Positions 16,501-61,611 of a stretch of DNA of 64,000 nt are shown one piece after another (the first letter of the stretch is position 1; each line of letters starts with the position of its first letter). Position numbers and translations under genes: made by a program. The stretch covers positions 216,132,001 to 216,196,000 of the forward strand of contig OZ024740.1 in assembly GCA_964016885.1 (NCBI GenBank). Reading direction: 5' to 3'. Source of the stretch: Eledone cirrhosa (lineage: Eukaryota). The notes under the pieces were generated by a model, which did not search any database, was not told where the DNA came from, and saw only the letters and a list, made by a program, of their open reading frames with translations.

Positions 16501-16840
16501 GAGGCACATGGCTCATGGCTTAGTGGTTAGAGCATTGGCCTTTCAATCGAAAGGTTGTGAGTTCAATTCTCAGACCGGGTGATGTGTTGTTTCCTTGAGC
16601 AAGGCACTTTATTTCATATTGCTCCAGTTTACTCAGCTGTAGAAATGAGATGATAGGACTGGGGTCCCTATCATTACACTGTAAAGTGGTCGTGGAGGTG
16701 CCACGGCAAAAAAGCACCCAGCACTCACTGTAAATGAGGTTGGTGTTAGGAAGGGCATCCAGCTGTAGAAATCAAGCCAGAATCAGTTCCCGTCTCACCC
16801 TTGCAAACAGGGAAAAGCGGACGTAAAATGAAATGATGAT
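16500..16840 (+). mobile_element. tRNA-derived SINE family 1 with RTE-derived tail
   Basis: A-box TGGCTTAGTGG, B-box GAGTTCAATTC, central CCTTGAGCAAGGCACTT, tail ..GGGAAAAGCGGACGTAAAATGA. Confidence 0.92.
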
Positions 16841-17646: not shown

Positions 17647-17973
17647 GGAGGTACATGGCTTAGTGGTTAGAGCATTGGGCTTGCAATTCAAAGGTTGTGA
17701 GTTCAATTCTCACACTGGGTGATGTGTTGTTTCCTTGAGCAAGACACTTTATTTCACATTGCTCCAGTTTACTCAGCTGTAGAAATGAGATGATAGGGAC
17801 TGGGGTCTCTATCATTCCACTGCAAAGTGGTCATGGAGGTGCCACGGCAAAAAAGCACCCAGCACTCACTGTAAATGAGGTTGGTGTTACGAATGGCATC
17901 CAGCTGTAGAAATCAAGCCAGAATCAGTTCCACCCTTGCAAGCAGGGAAAAGCGGACGTAAAATGATGATGAT
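17647..17973 (+). mobile_element. SINE family 1 copy
   Basis: Near-identical to 16500-16840. Confidence 0.92.
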
Positions 17974-29385: not shown

Positions 29386-30192
29386 ATATTGAAGACTTAA
29401 CTATGTTTAAGTTCAGTAATTTTTATTTCTAATTTTTCATATTTGCTTATTAGGTCTTTAATGTTTAGTTTGGAAGAAATCTTTTATGACCATCCTGATC
29501 ATCTGAAGGAACTGATAACATTTGGGTACTGTTGATACATTTTGCAGTCAGCAGCAAGGGTCCATAAGAATAACTTAGAAAAATCATCACTGCCAGAGTT
29601 AAAATTATTTACCAATTAATTTCTAATAACTTGGCTGTGTTTACTTTACATGTGCTGTAGCTGTATGTTGACTTGATGTTTACATTCTGATATAAGAAGG
29701 GCTTTCAGAGTTAATCTTCTTAGTTTTCTAAGAAATTCTTTAAAATAAACACTAAGTCTCTCCTTTCCAACACAAACTGACACCTTATTGTGTCTGCCAA
29801 CTTATTAAAAGGAAACAATGATAAACAAAATTTAAATGTTGTATTAAATATAGAAAATGTATGACACGAGATAATCCATTGTTAATAAGTGGTCAAGATA
29901 TGTGTATATATCTGAAGTATTTCATTAATTTGGTTATTGTTTCTTTATGAGTATTAATGTGTTGTTTACATCCCCCCCCCCCACACACACATGCACACAA
30001 CGTACATGTGTACATATAGATATATATATATATATAGATATGTATATCTGTCTATATGTGTATAAATGGATGTCTCACTCCCTCTTTCCCTACACACACA
30101 CACGCATATATATCATCATCATCATCCACTTTTCCATATTATATATATATATATATATATATAAGTGGTTACACAACAGTTAGTTCACCATA

Positions 30193-30233
30193 CCGAGAAC
30201 AATTGTTTCACCTTAGCGGATCTTCAGCCCAGG
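30193..30233 (-). ncRNA. Minimal type-I hammerhead ribozyme (left arm)
   Basis: CUGGG-CUGAAGA-UCCgcuaaGGU-GAA-ACAAUUGU-U-CUCGG. Confidence 0.6.
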
Positions 30234-30446
30234 ATGTGTATGGTTATAGGAACAGGAAGGACAACCATACAAACGCGCATGCACAGAAACTCGGTCACTT
30301 CACACAGGCAATACTAGACTGCAATACACAGGCAATACTAGACTACACCTCCCGCACGCAGTCTAGTATTGCCTGTGTGAAGTGACCGAGTTTCTGTGCA
30401 TGCGCGTTTGTATGGTTGTCCTTCCTGTTCCTATAACCATACACAT

Positions 30447-30487
30447 CCTGAGCTGAAGATCCGCGAAGGTGAAACAATTGTTCTCGG
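30447..30487 (+). ncRNA. Minimal type-I hammerhead ribozyme (right arm)
   Basis: CUGAG-CUGAAGA-UCCgcgaaGGU-GAA-ACAAUUGU-U-CUCGG: intact core, 5-bp stem I, palindromic stem III. Confidence 0.65.
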
Positions 30488-30581
30488 TATGGTGAACTAA
30501 CTGTTGTGTAACCACTTCTACCTAACTCGTCCCTTGGACTGAGTGCTCTACCACTATGGATATTACCTTCCAGTGTTCCAC

Positions 30582-30621
<40 letters not shown>

Positions 30622-30623
<2 letters not shown>

Positions 30624-33600
30624 TCATCAACGTTTAACGTCCGTGTTCCATGCTTGCATGGGTTTGGACGGGGTTTTCCTACTTGAGGCAAGAGTGATTA
30701 TCTTGCTTGCATAGGACTATCTGGCGGGTTTTCTACAGCTGGATGCCCTTCCTAACACCAACCACATTTACAGTGTGGGTCTGGGAGGTTTTTACCGTGT
30801 TGCCTACACGGCCACATTACAGCGTGAACTGTGTGTTTTTTGACGTGACACCTACATGATCTCATTTGTTTCGGCCTGGATGTTGTGGCACCAACATAAC
30901 TTTACATTGAAAGAGGCGGTGTGGATGCGGTGGGGGTGGTGGGACGGGGGTGTATTTTGTTAGAGATGCCTACTGACTGTAGTAGGTTTTACTTTGTATT
31001 TAGGTAAGGCGGCTCTTCTCTATTACTGAGTACCGCCAAAGGTCTCGGTCCAGTGACATTGTCTTGGTGAGGTGTAAGTGTGTGAAGTCGGAATTTATCA
31101 GCTCGTCCCAGGTTTTTCTGCGTCTGCCTATTCCGTGGCTACCGTCTATCTTTATTGCCCTGCACTTTGTTATACAGCTATCGTCCTTCATGCGCATCAC
31201 GTGACCATACCAACATAGCCTTCTCTCGAATAAACAACATCTGATCCCTCTTATTTCTAATTTTTTCCTTAGTTCGTTTATGCTTTGCCGTTCACGTATA
31301 TTACTGTTACACATCCAGCGGAGCATGCAAGCTTCGTTTCTCTCTAGTCTGCGTATATCCTCTGCACACAATGCCCAGGTCTCACTGCCATGCAACATTG
31401 CTGTTTGTATGCAGGCATCATACAACCTGCCTTTCATTTTTAGGGAGAACCCTTTAGCGGCTAATAGTGGTATAAGCTCTCTGAACTTTTTCCATCCAGT
31501 TCTGACTCTAGCTACTGTACTTTCAGTGCACCCTCTCCCACTGCTGATTTTGTCACCCAGGTAACGGAAGCTGTCCACTATTTCTATAGAACCCTCTGCG
31601 CAGTTGAAAGAGCTAGTATTTTGTGGGCACTTGCTGCTACTTATTGCACTAGAGCACCGGCCACATGTAAAATCTATGTTCTTAGTTAGCTTACCTGTGA
31701 TCCCACTACATCTTTTATGCACCCATACTTTGCATTTGGGACACAAAATGGAGTTTCTACCTACGCCTTTCCTACACACTGCGCATGGCCACTTCCCGGA
31801 AGGGACCGCTGCCTTATTTTCTTTCTTACAAACTAGAACTTTGGTCTTAGCCAGGTTAATTTTAAGGCCTTTTGATTCTAGGCCGTGCTTCCATGTTTGG
31901 AATTTCTTCTCTAGCTCGGCCATTGATTCAGCTATGAGTGTTAGGTCATCTGCGTATAGGAGTTCCCATGGGCAACCGGTCTTGAACTCCTCTGTTATAG
32001 CCTGAAGGGCAATAATAAATAGTAGGGGGCTGAGAACAGAGCCCTGATGGATGCCAACTTTTACGCTAAACTCTTCACTATATTCGTTGTTAATTCTAAC
32101 CTTGCTGACTGTTTCTTTATACATGGCTTGTATAGCTCTCACAAGCCATTCGTCAACACCTAGTTTTCTAAGAGCCCACCAGATAATGGAACGGGGGACT
32201 CTGTCGAAGGCTTTCTCCAAGTCGACAAAAGCTAGGTATAGGGGTTTACTTTTAGCTAGGTACTTCTCCTGTAGTTGTCGTACAATGAAAAGAGCGTCTG
32301 TGGTACTTTTGCCTGACACAAACCCGAACTGCATTTCATCTAGATCAATTCTCTCTCTGATTAGTTGCGCTATTACTTTTTCCGTGACCTTCATGACCTG
32401 GTCGATTAATTTAATGCCTCTATAGTTACTCCTATCTAGGGCATCTCCTTTACCCTTATAACAGTTAACGATGATGCTGCTACGCCAGTCCTTCGGAACA
32501 ACCCCATTCTGTACGACTTGGTTAACTATCCGGGTGACCATGGTGTGTCCCACCGTACCAGATGCCTTCAGCATCTCGGCAACTATTTCCGAAGGCCCAG
32601 CCGCCTTACCCGTCTTCATATCTTTGATTGCCTTACTTATTATACTACCCTCGACTAACACTGCTGGTCCCTGTATTGGGTCGATGTGGGGGAGACTGTC
32701 TTTCTCCCATTTATTCTCCTCATTTAGTAGCCTTTCATAGTGACACTTCCAAGCTACCTTCTTATCAGCGTCGGTGATGGCAAGTATGCCATCATCATTA
32801 AGTACTCACTTCTCCCCGACAATATCACGGTTTTCCTTGACACATTGCCTAGCAATCCTGAACACCTCACGTTTTTGGTCCTCGCGTTGTAGAACATGCT
32901 TGAACTTTCTTTCCTCTGCTTCCCTTCTTGCGAAGTACACTTGTCTCCTAGCTTCCCTCCTGGCCACTTGATAGTCTTCTCTGCTTCCCCCATCCCGCCA
33001 TACTTTCCAAGCCTGCTTTTTGGCCTTAATTGACCCCTCCACCTTACTGTTCCACCACCATGTTACTCTCCTCCTGCCTACAGGCCTGCTCCAGCCACAG
33101 ACTTCGTCTGCCGCCATCAGCAGGTTTGCTTTCAGGAATTCCCACTGCTCCTCTATATTGTACGACTCTAATTGCTCTTCCTTACTGTCGAAAGCATCAA
33201 GTAGTATACTTTTGAATTTATTTCTGGCTATGGAGTCCTTTAGCTTCCATATTTTTCTCCTGAGGATAGTCCTCTTCTGCTGTCTAGTACGTCTCGTCCT
33301 GACTATTAGGTCGCTAACTATGAGTCTATGTTGGGAGGTGCATTCTTCATGGGGGAGGCATTTAGTGTTTACAACAGACACTCTGTCACGTCTTCTGGTA
33401 AGGATATAATCTACCTGGCTTGTGTGTTCCCCCGATCTATAGGTGATCAGGTGATTGTCACGTTTTTTGAAGTTAGTGTTACAGATAGTTAGGTTATTTG
33501 CGTCACAGAATTCCAGGATTCTGGAGCCTTCCTCATTTCTAGTACCAAACCCGTAGCCTCCATGGATTTCGTCGTAGCCGTCACAATGTTGTCCAACGTG

Positions 33601-34392
33601 ACCATTTAGGTCGCCTGCAATAATTATATAGTCACTGTCGGTTATTTGGGAGGTAGCGAGCATCAGTGTCTCATAGAATCTGTCTTTTATAGTGCCGGGC
33701 AGTCCGGATTGGGGTGCGTACGCAGATATTACTGTCACCGTAGTTCTATTGAGGACAAGTCTTATTTTAATTATTCTGTCGTTCACTCTATTTACGTCTA
33801 TTATCTTATCTGCCCACTTTTCTGCTACCATGATTCCTACTCCACCCAGCCCATTGTCATTTCCCACCCACAAAAGCTTATAGCATCGTTTTTTACCCAC
33901 AATGAATCTAGCAGACCCACCCCTCCACCTGGTCTCTTGAATACAACAAACATCGACCTCCTTACGTCCAAGCATTTCTACAACCTTGTTAGAGCGACCC
34001 TTTAAGGTGCCTACATTCATGGTACCAACTCTGAAGTTTTGGATTGCGTTTGGAGGGTGGGAGCGGTGGGGATCGGGGGGAGATGGGATTATGTTAGCCA
34101 TCCGCGGCCGAAACAAAGAGGAATGCTCGCATTCTCGTCCACGAGGTGAATTTGTCTTTATCTTTGGCATTGTCGCTGAGCGTCCAGATTTTTCTCTCTT
34201 CAACTCTCCAGAATTCCGTAGTCCATCCATCCGTCATATCGAAGGCGACCAGGTAAGCGATAGTATAGGCCTCTGGCTTATGATTGGTCCACGTAATAAT
34301 AATGGTGGTGCGTGGGGGCGGGCGGGAGGGGTGTTGAGTTGTTAGCGAGAAGAATAGGTTTAAGTAAGATCCTCGTATTTAACAAGCGATAA

Positions 34393-37924: not shown

Positions 37925-39611
37925 AACAGCACAGTAGATAAGGCCATTAGAGACAAAAGACTAGCATGGAAGGCTTGGAAAAAGGGTGGGAGTAGCGAAG
38001 GATATACAGCCGCTAAGAGAGAAGCTAGACGTCAGGTGTACTTAGCACGCAGGGAGGCTGAGAGTAGGAGGTTTGCCAATGTTCTGCGAAGGGAAGATCA
38101 GAGGTGTGCAGGGTTCCGCATTTCAAGGCAGTGTGTCAATGCATATCAGGATGTTGTTGGAGATAAATGTGTCCGGAATGATGCTGGTGTACTTAGTGTC
38201 ACGAATGATCAGAAAAAGGAGGCCTGGAAATGTCATTATGAGAAATTGATGAATGTGGAGAACGAATGGGAGAAAGAGAAATTACCCTCAGTAGATCCGA
38301 CGAACAGATGCCCTCTTCTTGGTGAGACAATTGCAAGAGAGGTTCTTAGAGAAAAATAAGCCACTATATTTAGCCTTTGTTGACCTAGGGAAGGCCTTTG
38401 ATAGGGTACCCCAATCTGTCATCTGGTCCCTAAGGAAGCTAGGTGTTGAGGAATGGTTTGCAAACTTTGTACAGAGGTACTCTCAGTAAAGTCAAGGTAG
38501 GAATGGAATTTAGTGAGGAATTCCAGATACAAGTAGGAGTACATCAAGGTTCGGTCCTCAGCCTGCTCTTGTTCATTATAGTCCTCCAAGCCATAACAGA
38601 GGAGTTTAAGACTGGCTGTCCATGGGAACTTCTCTATGCTGACGATCTGGTTCTTATAGCAGAATCAGTAGAGGAGCTAGAGAATAAATTCTGGCTATGG
38701 AAACAGGAGTTGGAAGCAAGAGGACTGAGAGTGAACCTAGCTAAGACAAAAGTGTTGATGAGTAGATTCAATCAGGGAAATAGCCATGTTCGATATGCAG
38801 AAAAGGAACTGGCACAAATTCTATACAATGCAGATCCTGGGTACACAAGAGATGTAGTGGGATAGCAGGCAAACTAACAGGTAGGGAGAAATATGTATGC
38901 AGTAGATGTACAGGGAAATTAGACAGTAGAAGTCGCATTGATGGACACATTTTTCAAATGCAGGAGGGTGCTATAGAAGTGGTGGATAGCTTCCGATACC
39001 TAGAAGATCAGATTAGCATGGGAGGGGGGGGTGTTCCGAGGCCATAGTATCTAGAATAAGGACGGATTGGAAGAAGTTTAGGGAGCTGCTTCCTCTGCTG
39101 ACGAAAAAGGGTTTCTCCCTGCGTACGAAAGGCCGGTTATATGATGCCTGTGTGAGGAGCGCGATGCTGCATGGTAGTGAAACATGAGCAGCAACTGCAG
39201 AGGATATGCGACGGCTGGAGAGAAATGAGGCAAGCATGCTCCGTTGGATGTGCAGTGTAAATGTTGCATGAACGCCCCAGCATGAATGTGTTGAGAGAGA
39301 AACTGTGTCTGAGAGGGATAGAATGTAGTGTACGGGAGAGGAGACTGAGGTGGTATGGACATGTGATGCGCATGGAGGATGACCGATGGATGAAGAAGTA
39401 CCAGGAAATGCCAGTTGAAGGAAGACGTGGTAGAAGTAGACCATGAAAAACATGAGCGGAGGTGGTGAGAACAGACCTCAGATCATTGAAGCTCACGGTG
39501 GAGATGACGAAGGACCGTGACGAGTGGAGAGATGTTGTGCTGAATAAGACCCGTCCAACCCTTGCAAGCAGGGAAGAGCGGACGTAAAATGATGATGATG
39601 ATGATGATGAT
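37921..39611 (+). mobile_element. RTE-LINE subfamily A, truncated and internally deleted
   Basis: High similarity to 9690-11667; LLYADD; (GAT)n tail. Confidence 0.93.
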
Positions 39612-46030: not shown

Positions 46031-46036
46031 TATATA

Positions 46037-46230
46037 TAGGAAGATAGTCAGGACCCCAACGGCTGAGCTCCAGCCGTTTCGACAGCTATATCCGATCTAG
46101 CTGTCGAGATGGCCGGAGCTCAGCCATTGGGGTCCTGAATCTTTTTCTATTACCCATTCTACTACCCTAAGTATTGAGTACTCTGGTGCGTTATGGTCCA
46201 CCTGGTATCTTACCACACCCTCTTTGTTAT
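46037..46230 (-). mobile_element. Hairpin element (copy of 15900-16070)
   Basis: Reverse-complement homology including ACCAGGTGGACCATAACGCACCAGAGTACTC. Confidence 0.7.
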
Positions 46231-55647: not shown

Positions 55648-55687
<40 letters not shown>

Positions 55688-55690
<3 letters not shown>

Positions 55691-55830
55691 CTGGTTACAC
55701 AACAGTTAGTTCACCATACCGAGAACAATTGATTCACCTTAGCGGATCCTTAGCTCGTAATGGACATGGTTATACGGAACAGGAAGGAAAACCGTACCAC
55801 TATGGATATTACCTTCCGGTGTTCTATCAC
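55688..55830 (-). mobile_element. Single-arm copy of the 30163 Penelope-like element
   Basis: GGTTACACAACAGTTAGTTCACCATACCGAGAACAATTG and ACCACTATGGATATTACCTTCC shared; hammerhead core mutated. Confidence 0.75.
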
Positions 55831-56794
55831 TATATATAAATTTATGCTTAGAGTGCCTAATAGAACATTTATAGAATATATATATCATTATCTGTAAAAG
55901 GCAGATTGTTGTTGTGTGTGTGCATGTTCCATGTTTATACATGTACACAATTTCAAACCGATTCGATTCAACGTCTGTAAGAATGTTGTAAATGGTCGAA
56001 CTTAGGTCAACGACTATTTATTTCATTCAAACTCACCCACAATTACGGAAAGAATCGATAAAACTAAATACATGACGCTTTACCCCTCTAATACAATCTG
56101 ATCTCCTCTCTCTACTCCCCTTAAAATTCGATAAAACTACATACATGCTGCAACTTTCTCTTATATACGCTTAAAGTTACAAACTTCCTTTAGGAACGCC
56201 GAAGAGAGTGAGAGGGAGAGAGAGAGAACGTTTTTTTTTGAGTTTGGAATGGTCAAACATTTATTTACTTCAATGACAAAGAGAACTTATTACATTTCAT
56301 ACGAAACAACAATTATTCAAAAGCAACAGATAAATTTTTTCAACAACAACAAAAATAGCGATAAATCTTTTTTAAAACATCTCTCAACGAACGTGGAAGA
56401 AAGAAGTAGCAGTTTATTTACTATACACACTAATATCCTCTATGAGGTCACTAAACCTGCTAGAAACAGCAGCTAACTCTCCCCCATATCACACCCCTCC
56501 CTACTGTCTTAAATTTAGAAAACACACATTAGACAACCATGCAGAACAACTCCATCGCAGCTCTGTTGTTCGGCTGGCATCGTCTACGTGCGTGTTGCGC
56601 AAGTACTGTGAAACAATAAATTTCAACACTTCTTTGCACAGAGATAATATCCATAGGTGAAATTACAATTGTCACTACTGACGCAGCTCCTGCTTCGGCA
56701 GTCCAGGTCTGCAATTCATTCACCCAGTGCCTGGCAGACAAAAAAGTGCTGCCATAAAATGGGTGGTGCAACCTAACTTTGGTAACTTACTGAC

Positions 56795-57174: not shown

Positions 57175-57260
<86 letters not shown>

Positions 57261-61276: not shown

Positions 61277-61611
61277 GGAGGCACATGGCTTACTGGTTAG
61301 GGCATTGGCTTTGCAATCGAAAGGTTGTGAGTTCAATTCTCATACCGGGTGATGTGTTGTTTCCTTGAGCAAGACACTTTATTTCACATTGCTCCAGTTT
61401 ACTCAGCTGTAGAAATGAGATGATAGGGACTGGGGTCCCTATCATTCCACTGCAAAGTGGTCGTGGAGGTGCCACGGCAAAAAAGCACCCAGCACTCACT
61501 GTAAATGAGGTTGGTGTTAGGAAGGGCATCCAGCTGTAGAAATCAAGCCAGAATCAGTTCCCGTCCCACCCTTGCAAGCAGGGAAAAGCGGACATAAAAT
61601 GATGATGATGA
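61277..61611 (+). mobile_element. SINE family 1 copy
   Basis: Near-identical to 16500-16840. Confidence 0.92.

Follow-up and report, generated by a model that had tools for sequence, protein, structure and literature searches.

A palindrome with 160-bp arms in Eledone cirrhosa as a truncated, two-ended insertion of a Hydra-clade Penelope-like element, with a likely origin in two-site priming

An inverted pair of arms between (TA)n tracts

We analyzed a 64,000-nucleotide stretch of Eledone cirrhosa DNA (hereafter the window), in which an inverted pair of arms lies between two (TA)n target tracts that are readable in the sequence, one on the left (30140–30162) and one on the right (30586–30621). 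The arms, 30163–30322 and 30358–30517, pair over 160 bp with mismatches only at 30229/30451 and 30215/30465, and the palindrome with about two differences described in the first-pass annotation is real. A further mismatch, 30162/30518, is the edge of the arms and falls inside TA microhomology. With a natural monomer of the parent element (L173:2480-5056) as the ruler for arm positions, BLAST assigned the left part of the insertion, 30160–30322 on the − strand, to ruler 2350–2512 in inverted orientation (window 30322–30160) and the right part, 30344–30585 on the + strand, to ruler 2336–2577. Both parts are the 3’ end of a Hydra element; the left one finishes at a tail-less terminus (end A), and the right one at a tailed terminus (end B), 65 nt further. 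Full-length copies delimit these 65 nt (30521–30585, +) as a tail between ends A and B, and the tail, previously taken to be unique, turned out to be common to the family. At the palindrome, the tailed arm exceeds the tail-less arm by 14 nt. The 35-nt spacer is composed of 14 nt of true element sequence (30344–30357) and a templated insert of ~21 nt (30323–30343), which re-copies the arm end, is unique in the genome, and contains most of the 19-nt repeat that had been noticed in the spacer and that we verified (30302–30320 = 30326–30344). The central junction of the palindrome occurs once in the 3.0-Gb genome with one mismatch allowed. Since both flanks are (TA)n, any target-site duplication would be unreadable.

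A palindrome of this kind might be an artefact of assembly or of long-read fold-back, and in four read runs over 30290–30584 no record crosses the junction bin 30330–30339, as an artefact would have it; such a hole proves nothing. Against this explanation, the arms differ at two sites, end exactly at the family termini and enclose a templated insert, and 67 other loci obey the same rule for their ends (described below). Raw short reads of another sample contain opposite-strand joints within the family as well as loose ends into TA at both termini, showing that inversions of the family and both of its ends exist outside the assembly. We regard an artefact as extremely improbable.

Another two-ended insertion of this family, independent of the first, lies in the window at 55686–55831 and was recognized by comparison with the ruler. 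It had been described as a one-arm relative (55688–55830); in fact an inverted A arm (55686–55797, −) meets a 37-bp B arm (55795–55831, +) with a 3-nt overlap at the joint. The hammerhead core of its A arm is broken at two positions (CUAAGGA, GAAU). Outside the element, the right TA tract abuts the 3’ end of a non-LTR retrotransposon with an APE endonuclease and a reverse transcriptase (RT) at 30622–34233 (−), which is near-intact, with a PHD-like finger and a single in-frame stop at about 32805; fragments related to it lie at about 10.5, 18.1 and 37.9 kb. Elsewhere in the window, a perfect (CT)n-(AG)n palindrome of about 84 bp occupies 57176–57259, and partial tRNA-like matches at 16516–16573, 17656–17713 and 61286–61343 are probably the heads of tRNA-derived SINEs. 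A long imperfect GC-rich hairpin at 46036–46150, unrelated to the palindrome family and matching a miRNA model by chance, is probably another repeat, and similar sequence flanks some of the fetched loci.

The parent element and its hammerhead motifs

With the right arm and its tail as the query, the 3.0-Gb genome yielded 3015 candidates, 40 of which were scored (96–100% identity). Many of the 30 fetched loci extend upstream into a T-rich UTR and then into an ORF, and the longer copies encode, in this single ORF, an RT with YRDD followed by a C-terminal GIY-YIG endonuclease (AVIY..SYVG). In full-length copies a pLTR precedes the body to form a partial tandem with a monomer of 2577 bp, and the 65-nt tail continues into the 5’ end of the next monomer. 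The ORF carries RLRWR (RWR for RWK), LSDKTN (DKT in place of DKG), a CxCx5C linker (CSCRKPEAC) and, in the endonuclease, CGLC..E..LN..CPH, i.e., CxxC and CxH around conserved E and N; CCHH is absent and there are no cysteines between the GIY- and YIG-like motifs. These motifs are kept in an alignment with 10 of the 120 homologues listed from a search with 1080 matches. Searches of Pfam with five proteins and of the PDB by sequence gave no match for the family ORF, and only one homologue (P0006) matched GIY-YIG. No wholly intact ORF was found in 20 fetched copies or among at least 71 protein matches, and we therefore consider the family recent, which does not imply activity. The claim of a young family inserted in (TA)n is borne out, the family being fairly young; the far flank is TA-like in 64 of 70 two-ended insertions, the anchored end having been chosen for TATA.

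A length below 3 kb, a hammerhead near the 3’ end and a (TA)n target are the marks of the Hydra clade, which includes the (TA)n-targeting Hydra-1_Obim of Octopus bimaculoides (Craig et al. 2021, PMC8557442). The Eledone family further shares with the clade, as described there, a single ORF, an RWK-type motif, DKT, CxCx5C, the lack of CCHH, CxxC/CxH, the form of the hammerhead and partial tandems. Its protein resembles that of Hydra-1_Obim in a comparison by eye, while the hammerhead differs, and three diagnostic strings are absent from the PMC8557442 supplement. The assignment to the Hydra clade is drawn from motifs and this by-eye comparison. Naiad was considered and rejected as an identity, given the C-terminal endonuclease, DKT instead of DKA and the presence of a hammerhead; Naiad elements have an N-terminal endonuclease and DKA, and the canonical hammerhead is absent (PMC8557442). 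Both arms of the palindrome are almost certainly the truncated 3’ UTR/pLTR of a protein-coding, ~2.6-kb Hydra-clade element, and what is left in the palindrome, without any protein, comes from an ordinary Penelope-like element (PLE) of a separate family, as a truncated product of a known kind.

Each arm carries a minimal type-I hammerhead motif, complete at 30448–30487 (+) in the right arm (predicted cut between 30482 and 30483) and at 30193–30232 (−) in the left arm (predicted cut between 30198 and 30197), in agreement with the earlier proposal of one intact motif on each strand. The right copy reads CUGAG / CUGAAGA U CC GCGAA GG U GAAA CAAUUG UU / CUCGG, with a stem II of 2 bp and a 5-nt loop, flanked by U and U. 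In each copy the self-complementary ACAAUUGU (stem III), whose self-duplex is computed at −6.4 kcal/mol, is followed by a GUU site. Stem I had been given as CUGAG/CUCGG for each arm; this holds for the right arm, and the left arm has CUGGG/CUCGG instead, together with the loop-2 variant U. As expected for minimal hammerheads of PLEs, the core is intact and both an NUH site and a palindromic stem III are present. The 35-nt core has 1123 exact copies in the genome vs 0 for the reversed control. An Rfam scan of the whole window and of the locus, which had been named as a check, gave no match to a hammerhead model, only chance matches of hairpins and simple repeats, and the folding energy of the monomer was no better than that of shuffles for either hammerhead (z 0.07 and 0.82). 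The hammerhead call therefore rests on the motif, the published Hydra layout and the 1123 copies. At 39098 (+), a CUGAnGA...GAAA motif outside the palindrome family has a possible stem (CTGACGA ... GAAA GGCCGGTT), and eight more loose matches to the hammerhead core lie elsewhere in the window.

The layout bears out the earlier claim that an inverted pLTR holds a minimal type-I hammerhead of the Penelope-like sort, its stem III being palindromic. In metazoan PLEs, minimal hammerheads occur as dual motifs 100–700 bp apart on opposite strands, dispersed motifs have been ascribed to truncated PLEs, and these hammerheads showed no cleavage as monomers and low cleavage as dimers (Cervera and de la Pena 2014, PMC4209133). 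The Eledone hammerhead resembles them in its type-I core, short stem I, palindromic stem III and predicted dimer, and differs from them in having U and U at positions 10.1/11.1 instead of G-C and in its shorter stem II. A stem II of 2 bp also differs from the 3–7 bp tabulated in PMC8557442. Several Hydra families in File S2 of the same paper have the form CUGAnGA-U...U-GAAAC-palindrome-GUH, some with U at the cut site. Our literature search on octopus PLE hammerheads returned nothing beyond the papers cited here and unrelated ones.

Two fixed ends and their pairing

Exact matches in the genome number 1881 for end A plus TATA and 1037 for end B plus TATA, and a third, ACCACT-type end in the middle of the tail is rarely used (28 exact matches). 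An ACCACT motif precedes end A, end B and the mid-tail end (window 30511–30520, 30579–30586 and 30549–30554, respectively), and is a candidate for the start signal of reverse transcription. A search for twin hairpins after the two ends found a small one following A and none matching or significant after B (z −0.48, 0.80, 0.98).

To describe the pairing of the ends, we took the first 70 exact A ends and the first 70 exact B ends, all on contig C1. These 140 anchors comprise 40 A-to-B and 39 B-to-A cases, no A/A, no B/B, 44 without an adjoining inverted arm and 17 unresolved. The number of unique two-ended insertions is 70, or 67 after dropping the duplicated L108, L254 and L255, the flanks of which are duplicated too, and all 67 independent insertions have one tail-less end A and one 65-nt-tailed end B. 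At even odds per pair, 70 of 70 A+B insertions would have a probability of about 1e-21. Among 20 fetched full-length loci, A pairs with B in all nine that could be resolved. Three cases stand outside the automated count: L136, possibly B/B, whose arms are 169 bp apart across simple repeats; L102/L134, an A/B pair separated by a gap of 208 bp; and L189, which is complex. Near the window, contig C1 carries an identical two-armed insertion three times, at about 217.38, 217.49 and 217.59 Mb, and another one three times, at 211.67, 212.09 and 212.92 Mb, both of which represent segmental duplications. In the openly readable papers that our literature search covered, there was no counted A/B pairing rule and no twin priming in PLEs.

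Compared at 77 diagnostic columns, the arms of one insertion match in 449 of 460 subfamily comparisons vs 272 expected and disagree in 11, and the distance from arm to arm is 0.061 vs 0.090 from an arm to others (48 pairs, p 5e-8). This agreement fits copying from one RNA, and also fits two RNAs of one source or period, or later conversion. Across the sampled pairs, shared changes stand to unshared ones as 38 to 378. The arms of the palindrome have only two unshared changes and have four CpG C>T changes in common (30397, 30409, 30413 and 30449, with the mirror sites in the left arm), which are rare in the family and are found nowhere else all together; in a search for a source copy, only one other locus had two of the four, and it lacked the remaining two. 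The shared CpG changes suggest arm-to-arm conversion in a short-spacer palindrome, or a decayed source copy. The G/T difference between the arms at 30215/30465 lies at a subfamily-diagnostic site in loop 2, and such G/T discordance was seen in none of the 47 sampled pairs that cover this site.

The 63 simple pairs divide into 10 whose tail-less arm extends >30 nt beyond its partner in the 5’ direction, 16 whose tailed arm does so, and 37 that break within 30 nt of each other. At L216, for example, the A arm starts from 521 and the B arm from 1911, i.e., the tail-less arm is longer. The 63 simple junctions comprise 35 overlaps of 1–16 nt, 3 flush joints and 25 with 1–49 extra nt. The 5’ breakpoints differ between loci except where the flanks are duplicated, and 47 of the 70 unique two-ended insertions are only 84–266 bp long. 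The breakpoints pile up at and upstream of the hammerhead core: of 195 arms, 55 break in ruler 2430–2454 (2.2 per nt) and 24 in 2400–2429, vs 4 in 2330–2399 (0.06 per nt), where ruler 2400–2454 is equivalent to about 30408–30462 of the window. This pile-up may mark where a pLTR-initiated RNA starts, or a stop of the RT.

The same arms bear on the use of the hammerhead. Most of them (162 of 195) read through the predicted cleavage site, and the templates were therefore mostly uncut, in line with the in vitro result for PAc Poseidon (PMC11167929). In the bin of the predicted cut (2474–2476), nine breakpoints were called automatically, of which about four appeared real by eye, two of these via stem I complementarity. 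The core is intact in 108 of the 144 arms that cover it, and on both arms in 21 of the 67 two-ended insertions. Within copies the core mutates (0.026) like its flanks (0.027 and 0.033), so that intact cores reflect youth. By lineage, only N7 and one loop-2 base vary among the 35 columns of the hammerhead, compared with 16 of 199 columns in the upstream UTR and 2 of 98 on the downstream side, which is modest evidence that the source lineage has kept an intact core. The hammerheads travel as passengers with the pLTR.

Proposed routes of integration and predicted transcripts of the palindrome

We propose that the palindrome is a 5’-truncated Hydra-clade insertion that likely arose from both nicked target strands priming at two sites, and give this account as a whole a probability of roughly 0.8. 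The GIY-YIG enzyme would nick both strands of the (TA)n target; reverse transcription would start at site B from one 3’ end and at site A from the other, on uncleaved RNA and, in this scheme, probably on one molecule; both cDNAs would break off early, at 242 and 163 nt in this copy, and end joining would link them, at the palindrome with a short templated insert. That both nicked strands start reverse transcription on the element RNA is, in our judgement, probable. That a single RNA molecule serves both primers is put more cautiously, at a little under an even chance; it is the simplest reason why A/A and B/B insertions are absent. In vitro, PAc Poseidon cuts and extends both strands at an AT-rich target, two internal RT start sites bound its tail, and hammerhead cleavage is dispensable (Frangieh et al. 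2024, PMC11167929). In the Eledone family the start codon is far downstream of the hammerhead and of both ends, unlike in PAc Poseidon and Pen2a_Av (PMC11167929, PMC3846280).

Fold-back offers another route, in which a single cDNA primes itself or switches template and the endonuclease, in resolving an intermediate, fixes the position of the tail-less end. Self-priming has been proposed from junction palindromes (PMC3846280) and endonuclease-mediated resolution of the tail has been proposed as well (PMC8557442), and several of our observations agree with such a route: the tailed arm of the palindrome is the longer one by 14 nt, simple junctions often overlap (35/63, by 1–16 nt), 37/63 pairs break within 30 nt, and the private changes shared by the palindrome arms fit one arm having been copied from the other. 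The 10 of 63 pairs in which the tail-less arm is longer, such as L216, are hard to obtain by fold-back because a cDNA begun at A has no tail to copy, unless it spans more than one unit, and the in vitro reaction extends both strands, with two start sites flanking the tail (PMC11167929). We consider fold-back unlikely. Priming of both strands might, on the other hand, use two RNAs held by an asymmetric protein dimer, one half of which always takes A and the other B. Two templates most simply account for both arms having copied one and the same stretch, a dimer of the Poseidon protein has been predicted (PMC11167929), and subfamily agreement is expected if one source was active. This version needs an extra asymmetry to exclude A/A and B/B (0/67), and the arms disagree at only 11 of 460 diagnostic sites; we find it rather doubtful.

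Returning to double priming on one RNA, we tentatively extend it to a rule, with odds slightly short of even: priming at two sites may be obligatory in PLEs, with one uncleaved RNA, ACCACT-containing sites 65 nt apart, and a second enzyme trailing the first. If so, this two-site rule alone would yield inverted arms, a one-sided tail and matching arm haplotypes, and the RNA would begin where the short arms accumulate, just 5’ of the hammerhead. Several points speak against the account proposed above. The Poseidon paper saw no difference in start site between the strands, pairing being outside its scope (PMC11167929). Subfamily agreement might equally reflect two RNAs of one source or period, or conversion between arms, and the arms of the palindrome share four private CpG changes and disagree at one subfamily site. 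The possible B/B case (L136) and the complex L189 also count here.

The first-pass annotation had viewed the palindrome as part of a non-autonomous, retrozyme-like family whose transcript from either strand could be ribozyme or dsRNA, spreading as a unit and switching between the two. The short length of most insertions (47/70 at 84–266 bp), the 21/67 with an intact core on both arms, and the clustering of breakpoints just upstream of the core, which makes a short template RNA possible, accord with this view. The single-copy junction, breakpoints that vary save in duplicated flanks, the absence of a tandem array and a core that mutates like its flanks argue against it. Moreover, the arms continue upstream elsewhere into the RT and GIY-YIG ORF, and therefore do not belong to a non-autonomous retrozyme family. 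Metazoan non-LTR retrozymes are head-to-tail tandem units with at least two hammerheads on the same strand (bioRxiv 10.64898/2026.07.22.740005). The palindrome resembles them in its type-I hammerhead, in being non-coding and in its derivation from a PLE pLTR, and differs from them as a single inverted pair with a unique junction that does not spread as a unit of its own. We judge the retrozyme view very improbable.

The switch itself finds little support. The hairpin of the palindrome is computed at −325 and −337 kcal/mol on the two strands, with the whole core paired. On either strand the antisense arm would be transcribed first, so that the core would be paired as soon as it is made, and the two hammerheads cannot form a cis dimer because they are on opposite strands. 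From these computations, read-through RNA is predicted to form a 160-bp hairpin that masks the hammerhead and does not free it. The retrotransposon at 30622–34233 (−) is a possible source of such read-through. A footprint of ADAR is absent from the paired arms (A>G at 18 of 3333 A vs T>C at 73 of 3730), which also counts against the retrozyme view. Among unshared changes, T>C and A>G are imbalanced, 37 against 15, in the direction opposite to that of ADAR.

As for what was known, inverted truncated copies with a one-sided tail have already been published (PMC8557442, PMC3846280). The Eledone insertions resemble those of EN+ PLEs in that one copy is inverted and truncated and the tail is confined to one end (PMC8557442), as the inverted pLTRs of Pen2a_Av have a tail on one side (PMC3846280); their tail is 65 nt vs the 30–40 bp stated for PLEs (PMC8557442). 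The inverted layout, the pairs of hammerheads on opposite strands and the one-sided tail are thus known, and the counted A/B pairing and the agreement of the arms are added here; neither a count of end pairing nor a link between inversion and double priming appears in the accessible parts of PMC11167929 and PMC3846280.

The palindrome locus is debris of an ordinary sort, and both cores are likewise intact in about a third (21/67) of the sampled two-ended insertions. For the family, the core appears to be kept in the source lineage though inserted copies mostly come from uncut RNA. The value of these insertions is as a sample of PLE integration, the later steps of which are stated to be unvalidated (PMC11167929), and the strict A/B pairing together with the matching arm haplotypes would provide a sharp prediction for a two-template test in vitro.
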